Positions 3,549 through 49,890 of a stretch of 49,995 nt of DNA are shown here, in pieces. Below the pieces are notes generated by a model. That model did not search any database. It had not been told where the DNA came from and saw only the letters and a list, made by a program, of their open reading frames with translations. The translations under genes were made by a program, and so were the position numbers. Every line of letters begins with the position of its first letter. Position 1 is the first letter of the stretch. This stretch comes from a phage. The stretch lies in the sequence record NC_105507.1, one strand, 5' to 3'.

Positions 3549-3967
3549 TGGCTATAACTGATAAAGGAGATTATCTTGAGTTTTACGAAAGAGATCCAAC
3601 CGACACGAGAAAGGAAGTTAATCACCAGATAGATAGCTTTCAGTGGTTGACTTATGCTCATCCTTATTTGCTAGCGTGGCATACGGTAAACGAGAATGAG
3701 AAGTCGAAAGTAACGGCGATGATTGATCAGCAGTCCGGCTTGGTTAAGGGGGTAAGCGATTTCATCATCCTGATTGGTTCAAACGGAAAATACCCCTTTG
3801 CAGCGATTGAGATCAAACGAGTGAATAAATCAGGCAAGGGGAAAGCATCACCAGTCAGCGATGAACAAAAGGCTTTTTTGCGTCGCGTTCGCAGCTTAGG
3901 AGGATTCGCTGCGGTCGCCTACGGATTTAATCAGTTTAAGTTAGCTATTGAATACATGCTTAAATAG
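3548..3967 (+). CDS. VRR-NUC domain nuclease (PD-(D/E)XK)
   Basis: DFIIL...AIEIK...Q pattern typical of VRR-NUC; ATG overlaps helicase stop (TAATG). Confidence 0.65.
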   Translation: MAITDKGDYLEFYERDPTDTRKEVNHQIDSFQWLTYAHPYLLAWHTVNENEKSKVTAMIDQQSGLVKGVSDFIILIGSNGKYPFAAIEIKRVNKSGKGKASPVSDEQKAFLRRVRSLGGFAAVAYGFNQFKLAIEYMLK

Positions 3968-4007
3968 CACTTTTTGTTAAAACTGGCGCGATGGATTGCG
4001 CCATAAT
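3965..4007 (+). promoter_or_regulatory. TAGCAC-box promoter-like cassette
   Basis: exact box TAGCACTTTTTGTTAAAAC, GGCGC/GCGCC hairpin, CATAAT 22 bp after TTGTTA. Confidence 0.55.
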
Positions 4008-4777: not shown

Positions 4778-5035
4778 ATGAAAAAAGAGAGAAGCGTTTA
4801 TTTAAATGAAACTGGCGAGTGGTTGTTATTTCGCGCTATGGTGTGCGATGCACTTGATAAAAACCCTAACGTGAAAAAGATGATTGATTGCGATCCGTGG
4901 GAATTTTCAAGCGCATTAGATATGAGCTTTGATGAGACAAGAAAACTCCCTCTTGAAAAATGGCACGAACAAATCAGAAATGATATGCAAGAGTTTGTAG
5001 ATTCGTGGAATTTTCAGAACGGAATGATCCACTAA
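4778..5035 (+). CDS. hypothetical protein
   Basis: ORF with GGAG RBS, tightly packed after dam. Confidence 0.55.
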   Translation: MKKERSVYLNETGEWLLFRAMVCDALDKNPNVKKMIDCDPWEFSSALDMSFDETRKLPLEKWHEQIRNDMQEFVDSWNFQNGMIH

Positions 5036-5078
5036 TAGCACTTTTTGTTAAAACGCCCGGCATTTTGTCGGGCATAAT
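5036..5078 (+). promoter_or_regulatory. TAGCAC-box promoter-like cassette
   Basis: exact box, hairpin GCCCGGC..GTCGGGC, CATAAT at 22-bp spacing. Confidence 0.55.
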
Positions 5079-8487: not shown

Positions 8488-8809
8488 CGCCCATCTCCCC
8501 TATTCTAGCAATATCCCTGATCCAGTCGTTGCGCATACCATCCAGGCTATACAATTCGAATCCGAAAGGCCGCTTTGACGATCCTTTGGACCAGTATTTA
8601 CCGCAGACCCCATCTATATAGCCAGCCGTCATCATTCTTGCGCAAAATTCCTTAGATGCAAGGCTGGCGAACATTCGCGGCGTAAGTCCGGCGGCCCGTG
8701 CGAGCCGCTCACATTCTCTATGCTGATAGATAAATTTGGCTATGTGCTGCCTGTTAAACCAGTCGTATGACTCACACCATTTATACAGATCAAGCAAAAA
8801 CATAATCAT
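8414..8809 (-). CDS. hypothetical protein
   Basis: ORF tightly coupled to upstream 526-aa gene. Confidence 0.55.
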   Translation of the reverse strand: MIMFLLDLYKWCESYDWFNRQHIAKFIYQHRECERLARAAGLTPRMFASLASKEFCARMMTAGYIDGVCGKYWSKGSSKRPFGFELYSLDGMRNDWIRDIARIGEMGDDELFQAKANRQDLEALRRKFNIT

Positions 8810-14968: not shown

Positions 14969-15430
14969 ATGGAACAGAAGACCACTAAGGACTATTGCGA
15001 TTGGCTTCGCGAGCTTGGTCGCCGCCTGGCTAGTGGCGATATTGAAGAGTATAAAATGTCACTAATTGACCTGGCCGGAATGTTAAGCGGTGACGACTGC
15101 TACAAGATCACGCGCAGTTCATCCTACAGCCGGACCATTATCAACCGCGTTCCAGAAGTAAGGGCCGCAGGTCGGGTAAGCATCAAGGTAGAGGAAACGG
15201 AAGATGATAAATTTTACGTTTTCCGCATGGTCCGAGAATCGAAAAGGAAAATCATCACGCCAGAAGAATTGCCAGCCATCAAGGCAAGGGCGATCAAAAA
15301 GTTTGCCGATCGCTTACTGGCAGCAATCCCGAATATCGTTGACCTGGAAGGGGATAAACTGGCTGGGGCTTGCGAGGGCGTAAGCCGCTACCAGGATATG
15401 ATCCGCGAAATCATCAAAGAGGAAGAGTAA
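14969..15430 (+). CDS. hypothetical protein (first rightward early gene)
   Basis: GGAGG RBS 7 nt before ATG 14969; track ORF start 14936 lies inside the -10. Confidence 0.55.
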   Translation: MEQKTTKDYCDWLRELGRRLASGDIEEYKMSLIDLAGMLSGDDCYKITRSSSYSRTIINRVPEVRAAGRVSIKVEETEDDKFYVFRMVRESKRKIITPEELPAIKARAIKKFADRLLAAIPNIVDLEGDKLAGACEGVSRYQDMIREIIKEEE

Positions 15431-16142: not shown

Positions 16143-16715
16143 ATGTTAAAACTTGCTGACATTAAATTCCCGATCACCTTCCGCACGACTGGTGAGTCAA
16201 CGATTCGCTACACATCGCGCGAAAATGGCGTTTATAGCGATGGTACGAAATCATGGTTGAAAGTTGATTTCTTTGTCAACGGTCACAATAGACACAATCC
16301 GCACAACGAAGAGGATAAAGTGTACTACGTGGAAGACATTACAAAACACTTATTTGGAGAAACTCCATTCGGCGGCGGTAAGACGTCAATTCAAAAAATC
16401 ATTGGCGATGAGATCCACAAAGCGGCTACCGAAATGAAAGCGCCTGGAGGCTGGCGTATTGACAAGAGCGCATTTGCAAATCAAGAAATCGTAACGCAGG
16501 GCGCAATTGAAGATATGCCAGTTGCAGCCACTCTAAAAGGAGTCCGGCTTGATGACGGCACCTGGTATGAAGTAACGGCCACACCAAAGACGATCGAGAT
16601 TCATGATGACGTTGTTATCCTTCTGCTTCACTACGGCGGCTATAAAAACCGGACGATTGCAGGTGAGATCAGCATTAAGCGCGGAACGATGGTTAAGTGG
16701 AAGGTCAAAGTGTAA
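16143..16715 (+). CDS. hypothetical protein
   Basis: AGGAG RBS; 190-aa ORF. Confidence 0.6.
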   Translation: MLKLADIKFPITFRTTGESTIRYTSRENGVYSDGTKSWLKVDFFVNGHNRHNPHNEEDKVYYVEDITKHLFGETPFGGGKTSIQKIIGDEIHKAATEMKAPGGWRIDKSAFANQEIVTQGAIEDMPVAATLKGVRLDDGTWYEVTATPKTIEIHDDVVILLLHYGGYKNRTIAGEISIKRGTMVKWKVKV

Positions 16716-18678: not shown

Positions 18679-19269
18679 ATGAAGCGAGACATTATCATCC
18701 TTAATGGGCCGCCAGGTTGCGGGAAGGACACTATTGCAGCTTACCTAACGGGCCATCGTTACCCAGCGGTTAAGGCGTCATTCAAACAGCCGATGTTCGA
18801 TATTGCGTTTTCCATGCTTGGCCCGACTCGATATGATGAGTTTATTGACCTGTACAACGACCGAGAGCAAAAAGAAAAGCCTCAAGTTATCTTAGGCGGC
18901 AAGTCACCTCGACAATTCATGATCTGGATTAGCGAGGATGTAATGAAGCCAGTCTTTGGGGAGCAGTATTTCGGGCGTCGAATGGTTGAAGAGATTAACG
19001 AGATGTACCGAGATTTGACGGTTGTGATCAGTGATGGCGGATTCCCCGAAGAAATCAAGCCGCTTGTTAAGGCAGGGCATGAAGTGCATATTTGCCGATT
19101 GCATCGCGACGGCTTCACGTTTGCTGGCGATTCGAGAGACTACATTGACCTGAGCGGTTATCACTATCGAATCCATCACTATGACTTCCACTTGCAGGAC
19201 GGCAAGCCGGAACTGGCTGTAAACGAGATCGTCAATGCTGTCAAATGGAAGCACACACAGATTAAATAG
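18679..19269 (+). CDS. P-loop nucleotide kinase (dNMP kinase-like)
   Basis: P-loop GPPGCGKDT resembling the GKDT loop of phage dNMP kinases; GGAG RBS. Confidence 0.7.
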   Translation: MKRDIIILNGPPGCGKDTIAAYLTGHRYPAVKASFKQPMFDIAFSMLGPTRYDEFIDLYNDREQKEKPQVILGGKSPRQFMIWISEDVMKPVFGEQYFGRRMVEEINEMYRDLTVVISDGGFPEEIKPLVKAGHEVHICRLHRDGFTFAGDSRDYIDLSGYHYRIHHYDFHLQDGKPELAVNEIVNAVKWKHTQIK

Positions 19270-29367: not shown

Positions 29368-29392
29368 CTGATAGCATAAAAAAACATTGCAC

Positions 29393-29410
29393 GTTTAACA
29401 AAAAGTGCTA
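29393..29410 (-). repeat. degenerate TAGCAC box copy (antisense in structural module)
   Basis: revcomp TAGCACTTTTTGTTAAAC; no good -10 at canonical spacing. Confidence 0.4.
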
Positions 29411-29417
29411 TCATCTA

Positions 29418-30487: not shown

Positions 30488-30754
30488 ATGAGCAAAACTT
30501 TAAAACTTAAAGTAACTGGCGTTTGCATGATTATTATGGACGGTAAGCGTTATCACCCTGGTGATGAGATTGAAATTGAATCTGATCGCATTAATGATTC
30601 CGCAATTGAATACCTGATCGCTCGCGGCGATGTGGAAGTTAAAGACAATTCCGAAATTAACGAGCAAATCAAGGAGAAAGCGGAGAAGAAGCGCAAAAAA
30701 GATCCTACCGAGGGCAAGAGCCGCAAAGAGCTAGAGGATGGCGGCGAATATTAA
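30488..30754 (+). CDS. hypothetical head-associated protein
   Basis: ORF with Lys/Glu-rich C-terminus. Confidence 0.45.
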
Positions 30755-30800
30755 TAATTGGGGCGCTTATGCGCCCCTTGTCATATCTGGAGAAAACAAA

Positions 30801-31220
30801 ATGGTAGATGAATTTTACACAGACGCTGAAATCGTTCAGCAAATCGTAAAGTTGGCCCCACCAATGCAGCAGGTTGATCCCGATTTAATTGTGGCATGGA
30901 TTGAGCTTGCTAAAGAATTTGTTTGCAAAAAACGGTTTAAAAACTCATACCCGAAAGCGGTTGCGCTTTACACTCTTCACCTTATGACCTTAGACGGGGC
31001 AATGAAACAGGAAGGTGAAAGCGTAGAAAGCTATTCCCGCCGCGTTGCATCGTTCACTCTGACTGGTGAGTTTAGTCAGACGTTTGATCGAATTTCTTCC
31101 GATACAAGCGGAAAGCAGATCCGACAAACGCCGTGGGGCAAAATGTACGAAGTGTTAAACCGTAAGCACGGTGGCGGCTTTGGACTTGTAACTGGATTGC
31201 GCCGGAGATGTTGCCGATGA
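30801..31220 (+). CDS. head-tail connector/adaptor protein
   Basis: synteny; start at ATG 30801 after GGAGAAAACAAA RBS cassette. Confidence 0.5.
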
Positions 31221-32024: not shown

Positions 32025-32415
32025 TTTAATGTTAGCGGCAAGAAAGGCGCTGGCGGAGGAATATGAATCACGATTCAAGATCGCCTATGAAAACGTTGAT
32101 TTTGTTCCGCCTGGTGATGGTTCGATGTGGTTAAAATTTGACTACATGGAAGCCGACACAGATCGCATATCTCTTGATAGAAAATGCGTTTCTTATATCG
32201 GATTGGTTCAGGTTGGAATTGTTATGCCTCCTGGCGGCGGCACTGATAAAGCGCGTTTGCTGGCTAAAGAGATTGCGAGATTTTTCTATGATGGTAGAAT
32301 GTTTGAAACTGGCTATATTAGCGAGGGGGCAAACGTCCACGCATTACTAAAAAGTGAAACAGGTTGGTTCTTACCGATCCGTTTCAGTGTTAGGCTTGAC
32401 ACAAAGGAGGAATAA
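32014..32415 (+). CDS. tail terminator protein
   Basis: synteny (lambda U position). Confidence 0.5.
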   Translation: MHYDLMLAARKALAEEYESRFKIAYENVDFVPPGDGSMWLKFDYMEADTDRISLDRKCVSYIGLVQVGIVMPPGGGTDKARLLAKEIARFFYDGRMFETGYISEGANVHALLKSETGWFLPIRFSVRLDTKEE

Positions 32416-32417
32416 TC

Positions 32418-33083
32418 ATGCACTTGCCTAATGGTTCTCAAATTTTCATCGGCGTTAATATGGGTGATCCGATTCAGGCTACGGCTATTTCAAATGCTGA
32501 TGATCCTGTTTTTACGACTGCAAAAAACACTCAAAGCATCAAAAAAGGCGCTTATGTTCTTATTGAAACATCTTCCTGGGGCAAACTTGTTAGTCGCGTG
32601 CTTCGAGTTAAGGAGGTATCAGATGATGCAAGCGTTACTCTTGAGGGTGTAAGCACGAAAGACACCAATGTTTTTCCGGCTGGTTCTAATACCGCAACTT
32701 TCCGAGAAGTGAAATCTTGGGTAGAGGTTCCTTGCGTACAGGATCTTGCGCAGGACGGCGGCGAGCAACAGTATTACACTTATCAGTGTTTGGCTGATGA
32801 CCAAGAGCAGCAGTTACCGACCTACAAGAGCGCGGTTTTTCTTACCTACACTTTCGCTCATGAATATGATAACCCGATTTATCCGATCTTGCGCGAGGCT
32901 GATGAATCCGGCGACGTAACCGCTTTGCGTATGTACGTGCCGAAAGCTAAAGAGATGCGTTGCTGGGCTGGCGTATTGTCTTTTAATGACATTCCGCAAA
33001 CAACTATGAACGAAATGGAAACTGTTTCCCTTTCTGTATCTCTGAAAGGCCGATTCACGTTCTTACCTTCCGACGTTAAGTAA
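32418..33083 (+). CDS. major tail protein
   Basis: lambda V position, followed by terminator, GGAGG RBS. Confidence 0.65.
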   Translation: MHLPNGSQIFIGVNMGDPIQATAISNADDPVFTTAKNTQSIKKGAYVLIETSSWGKLVSRVLRVKEVSDDASVTLEGVSTKDTNVFPAGSNTATFREVKSWVEVPCVQDLAQDGGEQQYYTYQCLADDQEQQLPTYKSAVFLTYTFAHEYDNPIYPILREADESGDVTALRMYVPKAKEMRCWAGVLSFNDIPQTTMNEMETVSLSVSLKGRFTFLPSDVK

Positions 33084-33088
33084 AACAA

Positions 33089-33110
33089 GGGGGCGTTGCG
33101 CCCCTTTTTT
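33089..33110 (+). terminator. rho-independent terminator
   Basis: GGGGCG/CGCCCC stem plus T6. Confidence 0.7.
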
Positions 33111-33125
33111 CATTCCTGTAAAATC

Positions 33126-33168
33126 AATCTATCAAATAAATTAATTCCACTTTTAACAAAAAGTGCTA
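33126..33168 (-). promoter_or_regulatory. TAGCAC-box promoter-like cassette, antisense to tail genes
   Basis: revcomp box, TAGATT at 22-bp spacing, pointing leftward into terminator hairpin. Confidence 0.4.
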
Positions 33169-33183
33169 TAAGGAGATCTTAAG

Positions 33184-33501: not shown

Positions 33502-33818
33502 AGCGGGCGGTTTACCTGTTTTACCTCAAGCCGCCAACTGACGCACAATTAGAGGCCGTCGGCCTATCCCGTTCAGACTACGAAGGGGAGGATCCGCCGG
33601 AGGTAATTTTTGATGAATCAATGTTTCAATCTTGGGATCTGTTTTGCGCTATGCAGACGCAATGGAGATCGACTAGCGGCAGTGTGTATGGGTTCGACTA
33701 TAACGTTTTGCCTATGCTTTTTGACATTTACAAGATTGAGGATCGGGAGATGGCGCTAAATGATTTGCGCATCATGGAACAAAAGGCGCTAGAAATGATT
33801 CATTCAAACAAAACATAA
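33184..33818 (+). CDS. tail assembly chaperone frameshift product (G-T-like, -1 frameshift)
   Basis: A_AAA_AAC heptamer at 33492-33498 one codon before stop; -1 frame stays open to 33818. Confidence 0.7.
33492..33498 (+). other. -1 programmed ribosomal frameshift slippery heptamer
   Basis: AAAAAAC in X_XXY_YYZ register relative to chaperone frame; GGCGG..CCGCC hairpin just downstream. Confidence 0.7.
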
Positions 33819-39103: not shown

Positions 39104-42100
39104 ATGGCTAAATATATGATAAGCGGCAGTAAGGGCGGAAGCAAAAAGCCATACGTGCCAAAAGAGATGGAAGATAACCTGATCTCGATAAACAAGATTA
39201 AAGTTTTGCTGGCTGTATCTGATGGCGAGTGCGATCCAGATTTCACGTTGCGCGATCTTTATCTTGATGATGTTCCGGTTATTGCCAGCGATGGCACTGT
39301 TAACTACGAGGGAGTTACGGCTGAATATCGACCAGGTACGCAGACGCAAGATTACATCCAGGGTTTTACTGACACATCAAGTGAGGTGACAGTTGCAAGA
39401 GATATTACAGGAGACAATCCTTATGTTATTTCTGTTACAAATAAAAATCTATCTGCGGTAAGAATAAAGATCCTGATGCCAGTAGGCATTAAAACAGAGG
39501 ATAACGGCGATCTTGTTGGCGTAAGGGTTGAGTATGCCGTAGATATGGCTGTTGATGGCGGTTCTTATAGCGAGGTTATGAGAGATGTAATTGACGGCAA
39601 GACAAGATCAGGATACGACCGCAGCAGAAGGATTGATCTTCCTAAGTTTGATGAGCGCGTTTTAATCCGAGTAAAGCGACTGACTCCAGACAGCACATCT
39701 TCAAAGGTGACTGATAAAATCAAGCTGCAAAGTTACGCTGAGGTTGTTGATGCAAAATTCCGCTATCCTCTGACTGGACTTGTATTCGTAGAATTTGACA
39801 GCGAATTGTTTCCTACGCAAATCCCTAACATTTCTATAAAAAAGAAATGGAAGATTATTAATGTGCCAAGCAACTATGATCCAATATCAAGAGAATATCA
39901 CGGGTCATGGGATGGGACTTTTAAAAAAGCGTGGTCAAATAATCCTGCTTGGGTTCTTTATGATCTGGTGACAAATCAGCGTTATGGACTTGATCAGCGA
40001 GAGTTAGGAATACAGATCGACAAGTGGAGCTTATACGAGGCGGGCGTTTACTGCGATCAGAAAGTTCCAGACGGTAAAGGCGGCACTGAGCCTCGCTACC
40101 TATGCGATGTGGTGATTCAGAATCAAGTTGAGGCTTATCAGCTAATCCGTGACATTTGCTCAATCTTTCGCGGAATGAGTTTTTGGAATGGTGAGAGCTT
40201 ATCAATCGTGATTGATAAGCCGCGCGATCCATCATACGTGTTTACTAATGAAAACGTCATCAACGGTGATTTTCAGTACACAAACGCAAGCGAAAAAAGC
40301 ATGTACACGCAGTGTAACGTGACGTTTGACGACGAACAAAACATGTATCAGCAGGACGTAGAGGGGGTTTTTGATACTGAGGCTGCATTACGATTTGGAT
40401 ACAATCCAACAAGCATTACAGCGATCGGTTGTACACGCAGGAGCGAAGCGAATCGTCGCGGTCGGTGGGTTTTGAAAACAAACCTTAGAAGCACTACTGT
40501 AAACTTTGCTACCGGACTAGAGGGGATGATTCCATCAATAGGTGATGTGATTGCTATCGCTGATAATTTTCAGAGCAGCAACCTAACGTTAAACCTATCG
40601 GGCCGAGTGATGGAAGTTTCAGGATTGCAGGTTTTCGTTCCGTTTAAGGTTGATGCTCGTCCTGGTGATTTTATTATCATCAACAAGCCGGACGGAAAGC
40701 CAGTTAAGCGCACGATCTCAAAGGTTAGCGCAGACGGAAAAACCATTGAGTTAAATATTGGATTTGGTTTTGATGTTAAGCCTGATACTGTTTTTGCGAT
40801 TGACCGTACTGACCTTGCGTTGCAGCAATACGTTGTGACAACTATCAGCAAGGGTGATGACGAAAACGAGTTTACCTATTCAATCACTGCTGTAGAGTAC
40901 GATCCGAACAAATACGACGAGATTGATTATGGAGTAAACATTGATGACAGACCGACTTCAATTGTTCAGCCTGACGTGATGGCAGCGCCTGAGAACGTTA
41001 AGATCTCATCTTATTCTCGCGTCGTGCAGGGTGTTAGCGTTGAGACTATGGTTGTTTCATGGGATAAGGTTCCTTACGCATCGCTTTATGAAATGCAGTG
41101 GCGAAAAGGTGATGGTAACTGGCTGAATACGCCGCAGACCGCTAACAAAGAGATAGAGGTAGAAGGGATTTACTCTGGCAACTACCAAGTAAGGGTGAGA
41201 TCAGTTTCTGCAAGCGGTAACGCTTCCCCGTGGTCAAAGATTGCAACCGCCACTCTGACAGGTAAAGTTGGAGAGCCAGGAGCGCCGATTAATCTTACGG
41301 CTTCTGATAATGAAGTTTTTGGCATTCGTGTCAAATGGGGTATGCCGGAAGGATCAGGCGATACGGCTTACATTGAGCTTCACCAATCGCCAGACGGAAC
41401 GGTTGAAAACTCAAGTCTGCTTACGCTGATTCCATATCCTCAATATGAGTATTGGCATAGCACGTTACCAGCGGGGCAAGTTGTATGGTATAGAATCCGC
41501 AGCGTTGACAGAATAGGCAACGTTTCAAGCTGGACTGACTTTGTTCGCGGCATGGCGTCAGATGACGTTGAATCTGTTTTGGGCGACATTCTGGACAAGA
41601 TTTTTGATACAGAAGCTGGTCAAGAAATCAAAGAGAACGCCATAGACAGTGCCAATAAAATCAAAGACCAGGCGCAATCAATCATACAGAACGCGTTGGC
41701 AAATGATGCAGATGTGAAGTGGACGCGAGTGCAAAACGGAAAGCGCAAGGCTGAATATGGTCATGCTCTTGAGCTTATCGCCAATGAAACAGAAGCGCGC
41801 GTAACTCAAATCGAAGAATTAAGGGCATCAATTGATGGCGAGATAACATCAAGCATCAAGACAGTGCAGGAGGCAATTGCCACTGAATCAGAGACGCGAG
41901 CGACTCAAATTCAGCAGCTTGATTCTAAATTCACAAAAGAAATCGACGGCGTGCGCAAGGATACTTCTGCAAGCATTAGCGATGTAAGGCAGACAATCAC
42001 TAACGAGTCAGAAGCGCGCGCTCAGGCCGTTCAGCAGCTTGACGCTAAGTTCACGAAAGAGATAAACGACCTTGACGGAGTTATCAAAACAGAAGTCGAG

Positions 42101-42682
42101 GCTAACATCTCAGAAGTGAAACAGGCGATCGCCAATGAGACAGAGGCAAGGGTTCAGGCTGACCAGGCATTAACAGCACGATTTGGCGACGTTGAATCTG
42201 CATTGGTTGAAAAGTTGGATTCTTGGGCGAGCGTTGATTCAGTTGGGGCTAAATACGCTATGAAACTTGGCCTTACTTACAAAGGCCAGCAATACAGCGC
42301 AGGAATGGTGATGCAGCTTTCGCAGGGTTCATCCGGCCTTATCTCGCAAATTTTGTTTGATGCTAACAGGTTCGCCATTATGACTAGCTCTACTGGAGGG
42401 ACTTTTACTTTGCCTTTCGTGGTTGAGAATAATCAGGTTTTCATTAATAGTCTTTTGGTGAAGAACGGTTCAATCACTAATGCGATGATTGGTAATGTGA
42501 TTCAGTCAAACAACTTTGTTCAAAACCAGCAAGGATGGAGGCTTGATAAAAACGGAATCTTTGAGAATTACGGATCAACGCCAGGAGAAGGAGCTACTAA
42601 ATTCACCAATGAGGGATTGAAGGTAAAAGATGCAAACGGAGTATTGAGGGTTGAAGTCGGAAGGATTACCGGAAGCTGGTAA
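39104..42682 (+). CDS. tail tip / host specificity protein (lambda J-like)
   Basis: about 1190 aa, synteny after I. Confidence 0.9.
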   Translation: MAKYMISGSKGGSKKPYVPKEMEDNLISINKIKVLLAVSDGECDPDFTLRDLYLDDVPVIASDGTVNYEGVTAEYRPGTQTQDYIQGFTDTSSEVTVARDITGDNPYVISVTNKNLSAVRIKILMPVGIKTEDNGDLVGVRVEYAVDMAVDGGSYSEVMRDVIDGKTRSGYDRSRRIDLPKFDERVLIRVKRLTPDSTSSKVTDKIKLQSYAEVVDAKFRYPLTGLVFVEFDSELFPTQIPNISIKKKWKIINVPSNYDPISREYHGSWDGTFKKAWSNNPAWVLYDLVTNQRYGLDQRELGIQIDKWSLYEAGVYCDQKVPDGKGGTEPRYLCDVVIQNQVEAYQLIRDICSIFRGMSFWNGESLSIVIDKPRDPSYVFTNENVINGDFQYTNASEKSMYTQCNVTFDDEQNMYQQDVEGVFDTEAALRFGYNPTSITAIGCTRRSEANRRGRWVLKTNLRSTTVNFATGLEGMIPSIGDVIAIADNFQSSNLTLNLSGRVMEVSGLQVFVPFKVDARPGDFIIINKPDGKPVKRTISKVSADGKTIELNIGFGFDVKPDTVFAIDRTDLALQQYVVTTISKGDDENEFTYSITAVEYDPNKYDEIDYGVNIDDRPTSIVQPDVMAAPENVKISSYSRVVQGVSVETMVVSWDKVPYASLYEMQWRKGDGNWLNTPQTANKEIEVEGIYSGNYQVRVRSVSASGNASPWSKIATATLTGKVGEPGAPINLTASDNEVFGIRVKWGMPEGSGDTAYIELHQSPDGTVENSSLLTLIPYPQYEYWHSTLPAGQVVWYRIRSVDRIGNVSSWTDFVRGMASDDVESVLGDILDKIFDTEAGQEIKENAIDSANKIKDQAQSIIQNALANDADVKWTRVQNGKRKAEYGHALELIANETEARVTQIEELRASIDGEITSSIKTVQEAIATESETRATQIQQLDSKFTKEIDGVRKDTSASISDVRQTITNESEARAQAVQQLDAKFTKEINDLDGVIKTEVEANISEVKQAIANETEARVQADQALTARFGDVESALVEKLDSWASVDSVGAKYAMKLGLTYKGQQYSAGMVMQLSQGSSGLISQILFDANRFAIMTSSTGGTFTLPFVVENNQVFINSLLVKNGSITNAMIGNVIQSNNFVQNQQGWRLDKNGIFENYGSTPGEGATKFTNEGLKVKDANGVLRVEVGRITGSW

Positions 42683-45763: not shown

Positions 45764-46420
<657 letters not shown>

Positions 46421-46463
46421 TAAACGGGGCGCTTGCGCCCCTTTTGTCATAGGAGAAAACAAA

Positions 46464-46916
46464 ATGCACGTTATTACAGGTGAGATTCGAAAAGAGCCAA
46501 AAGTAAAGCAAATGCCTAACGGCAGCACGCTATATGTTATTGAGCTTTCCGAGCGATACAAAGACCGAGAAGGAAATTGGCAGTATACAAACTATGTGTT
46601 TTTCTTTAACGCGAAAACAGACGGCCTGAATGGTTGGTATGCCGAGGCGTTCCAGGTAGGCAAGGTTGTTTCTGTTTCCTGCGATACCTTGCGAGTTGAA
46701 ACGCGAGAATACAACGGAAAGATTTACAGCACCGTGCAGCCTGGCGGATTTGCAAACTTGCTATTTAGCCAGAGAGGTGAAAGCCAGCAACAATATCAGC
46801 AGCGAACGCAAGGAGGATGGGGGCAACCACAACAGCAACAGCAACAAAATACTCAACAGCAGCCGCAGCAAAGCAATCAGCCTCCGATTGACTTTGACGA
46901 CGATATACCATTCTGA
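46464..46916 (+). CDS. ssb: single-stranded DNA-binding protein
   Basis: OB-fold-like N-terminus, Gln-rich linker, acidic tail DFDDDIPF; start ATG 46464 after GGAGAAAACAAA RBS. Confidence 0.9.
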   Translation: MHVITGEIRKEPKVKQMPNGSTLYVIELSERYKDREGNWQYTNYVFFFNAKTDGLNGWYAEAFQVGKVVSVSCDTLRVETREYNGKIYSTVQPGGFANLLFSQRGESQQQYQQRTQGGWGQPQQQQQQNTQQQPQQSNQPPIDFDDDIPF

Positions 46917-46920
46917 TAAC

Positions 46921-46950
46921 AAAAAGCCCCGCATATGCGGGGCATTTTTT
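46921..46950. terminator. bidirectional rho-independent terminator
   Basis: perfect palindrome GCCCCGCATATGCGGGGC flanked by A5 and T6. Confidence 0.75.
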
Positions 46951-47935: not shown

Positions 47936-49890
47936 TAAACAATTTCCCCCAATTGATGATCTGTTAGTGCCTTGTGCCATATACGGAAGTTTCTAACGTG
48001 CCCGAAAAGATGGCGTTCGCCTGTACTTGTTTGTCCGCCAATCCTTATAGTAGCCGTTGATACTATATATCTCCATTCCGTTTTTGTTTCGCTTGATATT
48101 CTGGCATTACTTACACAACAAGTATTGTAATCACTCTTTACTCTCATTCCTATGATCATCTTTTTTAGTTTCGCATTCTCGTTAACCCTTCTGTTTGATT
48201 TACCTATATCGCAATAAGGGAATCCATCATTATCGCCCTCGGCAGATCCGAAAGCAAGAATAATTGCCGCACCAGATTGATGACCTCCAGTATCAAAAAC
48301 ACGAGGCGCAGCATTTGGCGTCATACTCCAGTTTTTATTAGCCTCCACAAGAACTGTAAACGGCAAATTGTAAAGGTTGTTTTTTATTGGCACTGTAACC
48401 ATATCGCTTGCCCTTGTTGTCGGACTTTCATTAGTTACAATGAATGATGAAGCGCAAGATCCAACCTCTACTTGAGGAGTTGTTAAATCCATAAAGCTAT
48501 TTTCATCAAAAACTTCTCCTTGTTTATTAACGACCTGTATTACCCCCCTAATGGAAGTTGATTCATCAGTAACTTTGTAAACTATTTCTGCAAAAATCCA
48601 TTCCCCGTCTATGGTAGCGTTCTTTAGCACTATGTTTTTTGCGTCAACTCCAGAAGTTGCCACCCCTAAGTTATCGCAATCAATAATAGCAGAAGCAACA
48701 GAAGATAAAGGATCTCCCTTGTCAAATCTTGCTGCAAATCTTACATTTTTCCCCTTAGCCCTAAAAGATATTGTAACTCCATCACCCTTTACAACTGCAA
48801 TCTTATTTGTAGTAAGTCCAGCTATAATAGTGTAAGAGCCTACGCCACCTAAATATTCCCCTGGTTTAAATGTTGCATACTTAAACCCCCTTTCATCAGT
48901 CTTAGTTTTACCTCTTTCTAATCCTGGATTTGGATTCCATGATTCAGGCTTATTTGAATTTACAAAATAGTTTGTTCTCTGCCCTTCAATCAAAAGACCA
49001 TCCTTTTCAAATCTAGGTTCATCAATAGCAGCATTAGTAAGCACCCCAGACTTATTAATGTAAGTAGCGGTTGATGCGCGTTTAAACTTAACAATCTTGT
49101 CACCTGGCATCGTGATCTCATCGTCACCTATAACAATCTTTTTATATGACGGAGAGAATCCGGTGATCATATCCAGGGAATCATTAAACGGTATCCACAC
49201 GTCCGGCAACGGTTGCAATAAATCTTTGTAAGGTTCTGCGGCCTGCTTTGCGTATTCCTCCGCTTGATCTCGCGCACTTTCAGCTCCTGCCTTTGCAGTG
49301 TTCGCAGCGTCACGCGCGGATTCAGCGCCAGACTTTGCTGCTTCAGCGCCAGTCTTTGCAGTGTTTGCAGCGGCGCGCGCGGATTCAGCGGCAGCCTTTG
49401 CAGTGTCAGCACCTTTCTTGCTATTCTCTGCATTTGTTGCGCTTGTCTTTGCGTTATTCTCGCTAGTTTTAGCTGCCTTCTGGCTTGCTGCGGCTGCGTC
49501 AGCATTTGTCTTTACGTCTTCCTGGATCTTCTGTAGCTTATCCCAATCAAAATCCTTGATGATCTCAATAAATCCAGCAAGCTCCGACTCCTTTCCCTGG
49601 TAATAACGCAACGTTTCCGCTACGTCTTGCGCAAGACCGTCAACCGTTAACGAGTCATGAAGCAAGATCAGGTAATTTGTCTTCTTGACTACCGCGCCGC
49701 CAGTAGTAATTGCGCGAATGCTTGTATCGCTAATCACTTCTGTAATCACAGCAGCTTGCAAAGGTTGAGCAAGAAAGAAAATAGTTGCGCCTGGGCGAAT
49801 CAAGGTTAATTGCTCACGCCATTTTGTACCGTAACCAGTTACATAACCTTGCGCGTCCATAGACGCTTGGCCTTGTCTGTAAATCGCCAT
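47935..49890 (-). CDS. tail fibre protein
   Basis: Ala-rich degenerate repeats (AKTSENNAKTSATNAE...), C-terminal beta-rich domain; AGGAGG RBS before ATG 49890 (track GTG 49914). Confidence 0.8.
   Translation of the reverse strand: MAIYRQGQASMDAQGYVTGYGTKWREQLTLIRPGATIFFLAQPLQAAVITEVISDTSIRAITTGGAVVKKTNYLILLHDSLTVDGLAQDVAETLRYYQGKESELAGFIEIIKDFDWDKLQKIQEDVKTNADAAAASQKAAKTSENNAKTSATNAENSKKGADTAKAAAESARAAANTAKTGAEAAKSGAESARDAANTAKAGAESARDQAEEYAKQAAEPYKDLLQPLPDVWIPFNDSLDMITGFSPSYKKIVIGDDEITMPGDKIVKFKRASTATYINKSGVLTNAAIDEPRFEKDGLLIEGQRTNYFVNSNKPESWNPNPGLERGKTKTDERGFKYATFKPGEYLGGVGSYTIIAGLTTNKIAVVKGDGVTISFRAKGKNVRFAARFDKGDPLSSVASAIIDCDNLGVATSGVDAKNIVLKNATIDGEWIFAEIVYKVTDESTSIRGVIQVVNKQGEVFDENSFMDLTTPQVEVGSCASSFIVTNESPTTRASDMVTVPIKNNLYNLPFTVLVEANKNWSMTPNAAPRVFDTGGHQSGAAIILAFGSAEGDNDGFPYCDIGKSNRRVNENAKLKKMIIGMRVKSDYNTCCVSNARISSETKTEWRYIVSTATIRIGGQTSTGERHLFGHVRNFRIWHKALTDHQLGEIV

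Follow-up and report, generated by a model that had tools for sequence, protein, structure and literature searches.

How do the junctions upstream of a head-tail adaptor gene and of the ssb gene come to carry nearly the same hairpin and RBS within one phage genome, and what would such a hairpin do between the genes? We studied this question in a stretch of 49,995 nt (in the following, the window). It covers almost the whole genome of a T1-like siphophage, a member of the genus Warwickvirus (Drexlerviridae, Tempevirinae), and shares 99.9% identity with phage Phunderstruck and about 99% with JK16. A preliminary description had considered the two junctions (sites A and B) as one cassette, i.e., a partial terminator or RNA-stability element coupled to a strong RBS and reused in unrelated modules, with a third hairpin (C) as a further member of the family. 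The respective features are listed in Table 1.

Table 1. Features discussed in the text, with their positions in the window.
Feature	Position	Strand	Remarks
Cassette A	30752-30803	+	between the DUF7444 gene and the head-tail adaptor gene
Tandem stops TAATAA, site A	30752-30757	+	end of the 88-aa DUF7444 gene (30488-30754)
Hairpin A	30760-30777	+	7-bp all-GC stem GGGGCGC/GCGCCCC, loop TTAT
Tail of hairpin A, TTGTCATA	30778-30785	+	within TTGTCATATCT (30778-30788), degenerate U tract / AU-rich spacer
GGAGAAAACAAA at site A	30789-30800	+	Shine-Dalgarno GGAG and 8-nt A-rich spacer
DUF4054 head-tail adaptor gene	30801-31220	+	ATG at 30801 (RBS to ATG: 30789-30803)
Cassette B	46418-46466	+	between erf and ssb
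Tandem stops TAATAA, site B	46418-46423	+	end of erf (45767-46420)
Hairpin B	46426-46441	+	6-bp stem GGGGCG/CGCCCC, loop CTTG
Partial U tract TTTTGTCATA, site B	46442-46451	+	T-weight 3.56
GGAGAAAACAAA at site B	46452-46463	+	GGAG and 8-nt spacer before the ssb ATG
ssb	46464-46916	+	ATG at 46464
Hairpin C, AAGGGGGCG-TTG-CGCCCCTTT	33087-33107; with T tract 33087-33113	+	9-bp stem
Sigma-70-like promoter candidate TTGACA-N18-TAAAAT	46365-46394	+	11/12 match, in the last 55 nt of erf
Hairpins examined for stop-codon distance	22603, 28539, 30760, 33087, 33817, 36897, 39032, 42684, 46426		
Repeat AAATAGCACTTTTTGTTAAAAC, + orientation	1473, 3962, 5033, 15697, 16714, 17947, 19263, 20578, 24765, 49905	+	
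Repeat AAATAGCACTTTTTGTTAAAAC, reverse orientation	8270, 10432, 11106, 13023, 14328, 43921	-	- strand genes

We compared both sites by local alignment. Here, 45 of the 47 aligned bases are identical and three indels (2, 2 and 3 nt) are observed, which results in a score of 61. As a background, A was scored against all 90-nt tiles of both strands, which gives a mean of 13.1 (sd 3.7) and a score of 29 for the best unrelated tile. The near-identity of the two junctions is thus borne out at the places where it had been noticed. The stem pattern GGGGCGC-N(1-8)-GCGCCCC is found twice in the window, with about 0 occurrences expected, and the 15-mer GGAGAAAACAAAATG has exactly 2 copies (again about 0 expected) or, if 2 mismatches are allowed, 6 matches compared to 0.21 expected. 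From the RBS through the ATG, the 15-mer at site B (46452-46466) is identical to the one at site A (30789-30803). One detail had to be corrected: the loops, said to differ by one base, differ by two (AT).

The gene identities given in the preliminary description could be upheld. The gene at 30801 encodes a DUF4054 / PHROG 302 virion structural protein that is annotated as head-tail adaptor in relatives, while the gene at 46464 encodes an SSB (PHROG 44) and follows erf, the gene of an Erf-type annealing protein. The DUF7444 gene upstream of A comes after the major capsid gene. Hairpin C is located directly 3' of the major tail protein gene (32418-33083) and 5' of the tail assembly chaperone gene. 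Its core GGGGGCG-TTG-CGCCCC (33089-33104) is followed by TTTTTT, such that C is in its form a canonical intrinsic terminator. What C has in common with the other two sites is a hairpin and a T tract and nothing further; its alignment scores are 39 with B and 23 with A.

Each of the three hairpins is predicted to be an isolated stable fold of about -11 to -17 kcal/mol, namely -15.6 to -16.8 kcal/mol (z = -3.85) for A, -11.2 to -12.9 kcal/mol for B and -13.4 kcal/mol for C. With stems of 7, 6 and 9 bp, respectively, A, B and C are within the range of intrinsic terminators (stem of about 5-14 bp, loop of 3-8 nt), and all of them start 3-5 nt past the stop of a + strand gene (5 nt from the first stop codon at A and B, 3-5 nt at C). 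They differ in what follows the stem. Our terminator scan asks for at least 5 T within the 8 bases directly 3' of the stem. This number is reached by C (TTTTTTCA if the stem is taken as GGGGGCG) and narrowly by B (TTTTGTCA, 5/8), and A falls short of it (4/8, of which 2 are contiguous). That is, the tail of A (UUGUCAUA) is below the usual U-tract threshold and A was missed by the + strand scan. Its T-weight of 2.41 is the weakest, compared to 2.99-5.76 for the other + strand intercistronic hairpins; A combines the strongest stem with the weakest T tract of this set. A - strand terminator at A (tail AATTATTAAT in the scan) was rejected, since no - strand gene converges there.

The + strand of the window contains 16 intergenic GC hairpins, 13 of them within the late and recombination regions (from 22603), and at least 13 junctions show the order stop codon, GC hairpin, T-rich tail, GGAG and ATG. 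For the hairpins examined with regard to their distance from the stop codon, the majority of the intergenic stems start at most 6 nt past it, and the one at 33817 even overlaps the stop. A compact layout with 19-26 nt between stem end and start codon is observed for seven hairpins (24799, 28539, 29417, 30441, A, 33817 and B). The tails of the compact hairpins vary one theme (TTTTATTATGGAG, TTTTTATGGAG, TTTTAATATCTGGAG, TTGTCATATCTGGAG and TTTTGTCATAGGAG), and no two of these elements are more alike than A and B.

Sites A, B and C as well as this type of element are already known as predicted terminators of T1-like phages, since they are annotated in T1, TLS and G29-2. The RefSeq record of T1 lists a "rho-independent transcriptional termination site" at 16445-16470 (orthologue of A) and at 18770-18796 (orthologue of C). 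In the re-annotation of TLS, the respective orthologues are the predicted terminators T36B and T42 (PMC11447400, Table S1). For Hanrivervirus G29-2, ARNold terminators are reported at all three sites, i.e., at 16619-16637 (A), 18942-18960 (C) and 32250-32265 (B). The late region of T1 has been summarized as modules bounded by rho-independent terminators (PMC11447400). The T1-like phages agree with the window in the equivalent genomic positions and in GC-rich stems that are placed right after the stop and right before the next RBS. The window differs in the U tract of A, which is eroded to TTGTCATA where T1 has TTTTTTTATGG. Site B was not predicted as a terminator by the authors of the T1 and TLS annotations; the B sites of these two phages have no U tract. 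Most likely, the three sites are GC hairpins of the terminator type that are placed between cistrons and punctuate the operons of T1-like phages (the "transcripton" boundaries of T1). Annotations of T1-like phages thus already contain what would be control points inside operons. A literature search for Drexlerviridae returned no transcript 3'-end data, stability data or transcript maps.

Other repeats are found in the window as well. A repeat of 21-22 nt (AAATAGCACTTTTTGTTAAAAC) is present in about 18 copies, oriented like the local genes. It has also been described, as aaATAGCACnnnTTGnTAAAA, in TLS, T1, Rtp and Rogue1, where an UP-like promoter element, an enhancer site or a stoperator was suggested (PMC11447400). 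In the + strand late operon, two copies run the opposite way (TTTAACAAAAAGTGCTAT), one immediately 5' of the major capsid gene (29385-29413) and one immediately 5' of the tail chaperone gene (33143-33171). For TLS, the repeats are said to be oriented with transcription (PMC11447400). The copy at the tail chaperone gene is conserved in T1, JK16, BEK12A, G29-2 and MatMar; for the copy at the capsid gene, TLS is the only comparison and shows the reverse-strand DR7 'neg' (15044..15024) just before terminator T35 (PMC11447400). At 3962-4007 and 5033-5078 (early region), a copy of the repeat is nested with a GC hairpin (TGGCGCGATGGATTGCGCCA and GCCCGGCATTTTGTCGGGC, respectively) and a -10-like CATAAT/ATAAT, such that the hairpin is inside the spacer of the would-be promoter. 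These composites of terminator and promoter resemble one PeSL subclass of T4-type phages (PMC2839356). Tandem in-frame repeats are observed in two tail genes, i.e., a 63-nt unit in two copies with 84% identity (49279-49404, - strand, ORF of 659 aa) and units of about 99-132 nt in four copies with 76-82% identity (41777-42152, + strand, tail protein ORF of 1209 aa).

Conservation of site A was studied in about 50 IMG/VR loci that encode relatives of the adaptor with an identity down to 58%. Every locus with intact flanks has a GC hairpin between the upstream stop and the RBS of the adaptor gene. For distant relatives, the 150-nt bin that contains cassette A is conserved to 70-76%, compared to 50-64% for its coding neighbours. 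RNAalifold on the MAFFT alignment of the A-site sequences, which is register-shifted, reports 5 pairs with 1 of them covarying; given these shifts, structural conservation was judged from per-sequence folds. The tail of A grades across relatives from TTTTTTTATGG in T1 and TTTTTTATTATGG in TLS to TTTTTCATATCTGG, TTTGTCATATCTGG and TTGTCATATCTGG, and therefore resembles an eroded U tract and not a distinct motif. Most genera have a strong U tract at their A orthologues, and T1 and TLS reach at least 5 T in 8. No conserved promoter was found upstream of A when we looked for a counterpart of the element at site B.

At site B, eight Drexlerviridae genera maintain the erf-ssb hairpin, in 13 sequence variants. 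All of them (13/13) fold, with -10 to -13 kcal/mol, and G-C to C-G swaps and the reverse are observed at stem pairs 3-6. These compensatory swaps in variants that all fold are good evidence that the structure of hairpin B is under selection. Most lineages have no U tract at this site (T1 ATAAAATT, U136B AATAAGGA, GH-K3 ATAGGAAT, Ec_L1 AACCAATC), and only Hanriver- and Warwick-type genomes show 4-6 T after the hairpin. Termination therefore cannot be the conserved function at B.

About 30 nt upstream of hairpin B, erf contains a promoter-like element with the consensus TTGAC[ACG] or TTGAA[AG], N18 and TA[AGC]AAT, which is found in Tempevirinae, Tunavirinae and a Klebsiella phage. Both hexamers and their 18-nt spacing are constant while the spacer sequence and the encoded peptide change. 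The Val codon that provides the "TA" of the -10 hexamer is always GTA, and in the Ser codon after it any of the four bases is observed at the third position. The hexamers overlap a conserved C-terminal peptide motif of Erf (V-[EKQ]-S-Q). We consider the element a candidate for a dedicated ssb promoter. If it is real, hairpin B would be within a leader of about 63 nt of the ssb transcript, and the erf-ssb junction would combine promoter, hairpin and RBS in one compact natural unit. Such an element 30 nt upstream would be pointless before an efficient terminator, which would count against a terminator at B.

The reading frame of the downstream gene is free of stops throughout the cassettes (30738-30800 and 46413-46463), and ORF finders lengthen the adaptor gene to the ATG at 30738 and ssb to the TTG at 46413, i.e., through the hairpin. 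Some pipelines extend the adaptor gene in this way because the cassette is open in the downstream frame; the GenBank record of MatMar annotates the adaptor gene with such an extended start (MatMar locus 529-1011). We rejected both extensions as artefacts, since neither start has a Shine-Dalgarno sequence and an open frame is expected by chance with a probability of about 0.4 per site.

How far the likeness of A and B reaches among relatives bears on its origin. A second match to cassette A was found in 62/142 phage records, essentially those that are at least 95% identical. The identity of the B region is bimodal, i.e., either at least 95% or 80-90% with nothing between. Genomes with a Warwick-type B show within-genome A-B scores of 49-61, compared to 13-23 in other genera; for T1, A and B have only the 5' flank TAATCATCA in common. 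Within IMG/VR, the tail-plus-RBS string GTCATA-N(0-3)-GGAGAAAACAAAATG is found at site B only, in three Warwick-type contigs, and a mobile element was rejected on this result. A REP/MITE-like palindromic element was rejected as well, because essentially all relatives have a hairpin at these sites and the window contains no further copies. The notion of one cassette that is reused in unrelated modules thus has to be given up: across Drexlerviridae, A and B each have a hairpin of their own that is old and fixed to its position, and outside the stem they resemble each other in Warwickvirus-type genomes only. The sites also contrast in character, since B has a conserved promoter-like element and mostly no U tract, while A has no promoter and mostly a strong U tract. 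Matches to the cassettes with 78-88% identity are also present in 17-19 GenBank records named "Campylobacter phage" (MG0656xx, host C. jejuni), whose genomes have a T1-like size of 47-50 kb; the attribution to C. jejuni as a host looks doubtful.

Outgroup sequences have GGAGGAAACACA at site A and GGAGAATAAATA at site B. Relative to these, A lost U's and B gained U's, and both Warwick sites end in GGAGAAAACAAAATG. MatMar has a Warwick-type A, an ssb with 49% amino acid identity and an erf 3' end that is about 70-80% identical to the window. From hairpin B to the first ssb codons, it shows a near-identical island that includes CATAGGAGAAAACAAAATG and differs by one substitution and one 1-nt indel only. 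The ssb of Hanrivervirus is closer to the window (about 85% amino acid identity) yet has a different B tail (TTACAGGAGTATAAAAC). The B tail therefore follows the A type of the genome and not the lineage of ssb. Taken as a whole, the near-identity of A and B points to a lineage-specific homogenisation in Warwickvirus, by which two old and independent elements would have grown similar; we prefer this to a mobile cassette because the likeness beyond the stem is limited to Warwickvirus. Most simply, the similar stems would have seeded a short-patch recombination or gene conversion between A and B, and the phage-encoded exonuclease VIII and Erf would ease such conversion events. The near-identity would then show, on a small scale and cleanly, how regulatory DNA evolves in concert in a phage with its own Erf/exonuclease recombination. 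Some convergence under shared constraints is likely as well, given the A-rich composition of the spacers, which is similar genome-wide. Speaking against conversion, the polymorphisms of A and B are uncorrelated among close relatives, e.g., JK16 has GGAGAAAGCAAA at A and GGAGAAAACAAA at B. Concerted evolution across the whole family was rejected, as the A x B score matrix, which we use only qualitatively with its imperfectly trimmed sequences, is without a systematic diagonal excess outside Warwick-type genomes.

With regard to function, we hold with somewhat better than even confidence that the three hairpins terminate leakily and in a translation-sensitive manner, or protect RNA, beside ordinary strong RBSs, and that A and B were homogenised by recombination. 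The first half of the preliminary description, i.e., a partial terminator or RNA-stability element, remains the best fit, given that the orthologues are annotated as terminators (T1, TLS, G29-2) and that A has the weakest U tract; its second half, the reuse, is what did not stand. According to this model, the all-GC stem of 6-7 bp would form on the mRNA 5 nt after the upstream stop codon and, together with the partial U tract, would release a fraction of the RNA polymerases and/or protect the 3' end of the upstream message. As a consequence, the upstream products (major capsid protein and DUF7444 protein at A; exonuclease and Erf at B) would stay in excess over the downstream ones. The gap between the genes measures only about 45 nt, which places GGAG-N8-ATG directly behind the tail, and this motif would act as an ordinary strong RBS. 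Ribosome loading may in addition be aided by the AU/U-rich tail.

Since the stem starts so near the stop codon, termination would be leaky and dependent on translation, i.e., the ribosome that finishes the upstream gene would block the folding of the stem. For a reporter with lambda tR2 in E. coli, moving a stop codon to 5 bp upstream lowered termination from about 90% to below 10%, and uncoupled translation reversed this drop (PMC4824070). Given this result and the distances between stops and stems, it should therefore mainly be polymerases without a close ribosome that terminate. Read-through would be expected on translated operon transcripts, and at some frequency 3' ends capped by a hairpin would arise. 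The near-universal abutment of stop codons predicts such leaky, translation-dependent termination, which would also reconcile about ten "terminators" with a 20-kb late operon that contains them.

The hairpins, and B especially, could instead be RNA stability or leader elements and not terminators. We regard this as rather unlikely overall, and as a serious rival for B, because its U tract is mostly missing and the promoter-like element is found upstream. B would then be part of the leader of about 63 nt at the 5' end of a dedicated ssb transcript from the erf promoter, as well as on the 3' side of erf in polycistronic RNA, where it would shield RNA ends from exonucleases/RNase E or keep upstream structure away from the ssb RBS. 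This agrees with the 13 folding variants and their compensatory swaps in mostly U-less contexts, with the fixed spacing of the TTGAC[ACG]/TTGAA[AG]-N18-TA[AGC]AAT hexamers upstream and with the lack of a terminator prediction at B by the T1 and TLS authors. On the other hand, the B hairpin of Hanriver- and Warwick-type genomes is followed by 4-6 T and is called a terminator by ARNold, the overlap with the Erf peptide motif applies to the very hexamers that predict the promoter, and nothing comparable is found upstream of A. Furthermore, hairpin B would begin about 25 nt from the predicted 5' end, which is beyond the range of classic 5'-end protection. The geometry of promoter, hairpin and subsequent U4 is also that of a promoter-proximal attenuator, and the layout is in form like that of an unstructured RBS with a structured nucleation element beside it, such that the cassette could be an operator for an RNA-binding regulator, e.g., for an autoregulation of SSB like that of T4 gene 32, with the copy before the adaptor gene being co-regulated. 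The near-identical island from hairpin to ATG, kept despite diverged flanking genes, would fit. We nevertheless judge this reading very improbable: the plain GC hairpin has no evident specificity, and Rfam yields no hit at the gathering threshold for the whole window and none even at E<=1 around A or B. The resemblance of A and B is missing in most genera, and co-regulation can therefore not be a family trait. The narrower version, by which hairpin and tail of B are an ssb-leader attenuator or operator that was copied before the adaptor gene in Warwickviruses by gene conversion, appears just as far-fetched; if true, one RNA-level signal (SSB or ribosome occupancy) would tune DNA metabolism and virion completion. 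A processing hairpin for RNase III of the T7 type was also rejected, as the stems have 6-9 bp and no longer helix is found in 81-nt folds. Hairpins of that type have stems of roughly 20 bp that mostly include an internal loop.

A different role would be at the DNA level, where the hairpin cassettes could mainly act as homology patches for module exchange between co-infecting T1-like phages, with the identity of A and B as a by-product, in parallel to the PeSL cassettes of T4-type phages. The support is anecdotal and we consider such a role improbable. It comes from individual junctions: the identity of BEK12A to the window rises from 58-86% to 93-99% exactly at cassette A (30700-30800, compared to 8600-8700 of the BEK12A locus), where the BEK12A cassette is a chimera of a Hanriver-type hairpin and a Warwick-type tail, and that of MatMar, about 50-75% before the bidirectional hairpin that follows ssb (46926-46943), reaches 96% there. 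The phage encodes the exonuclease VIII / Erf recombination system, and PeSL stems are likewise GGGG...CCCC, with crossovers mapped inside them (PMC2839356). Other breakpoints, however, are 100-300 nt off the cassette (locus L003; MatMar near A), none is observed at B in 12 sampled loci, and viable recombinants survive at gene boundaries anyway. Finally, two or three similar copies by core genes are opposed to the dozens of PeSLs by ORFans.

The operator of T4 gene 32 resembles site B in that a structured element precedes an unstructured, AU-rich RBS before the gene of a ssDNA-binding protein. It consists of a pseudoknot and a long unstructured tract, and binding of gp32 has been demonstrated. 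The window, in contrast, provides a plain 6-bp hairpin and a 22-nt tail. In the tR2 series (PMC4824070), the stop is 5 nt before the stem, as at A and B. That series used a synthetic reporter and a strong terminator.

Several features are shared with the PeSLs of T4-type phages (PMC2839356, PMC4122927). These combine a short intergenic GGGG...CCCC stem-loop with expression signals and an RBS, are repeated within one genome and act as terminators/attenuators and as recombination patches. At site B, also the adjoining sigma-70-like promoter is in accordance with a PeSL. PeSLs, however, number about 50 per genome, are mostly found by ORFans in hyperplastic regions and always have a strong early promoter. 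We therefore rejected a PeSL-type cassette: A is without a conserved promoter, the promoter-like element of B is outside the repeated segment and inside erf, and the copies are few. That is, the window has two near-identical copies and one partial copy, all before core genes at positionally conserved sites, and the presence of the hairpin at each site is ancient and not variable.
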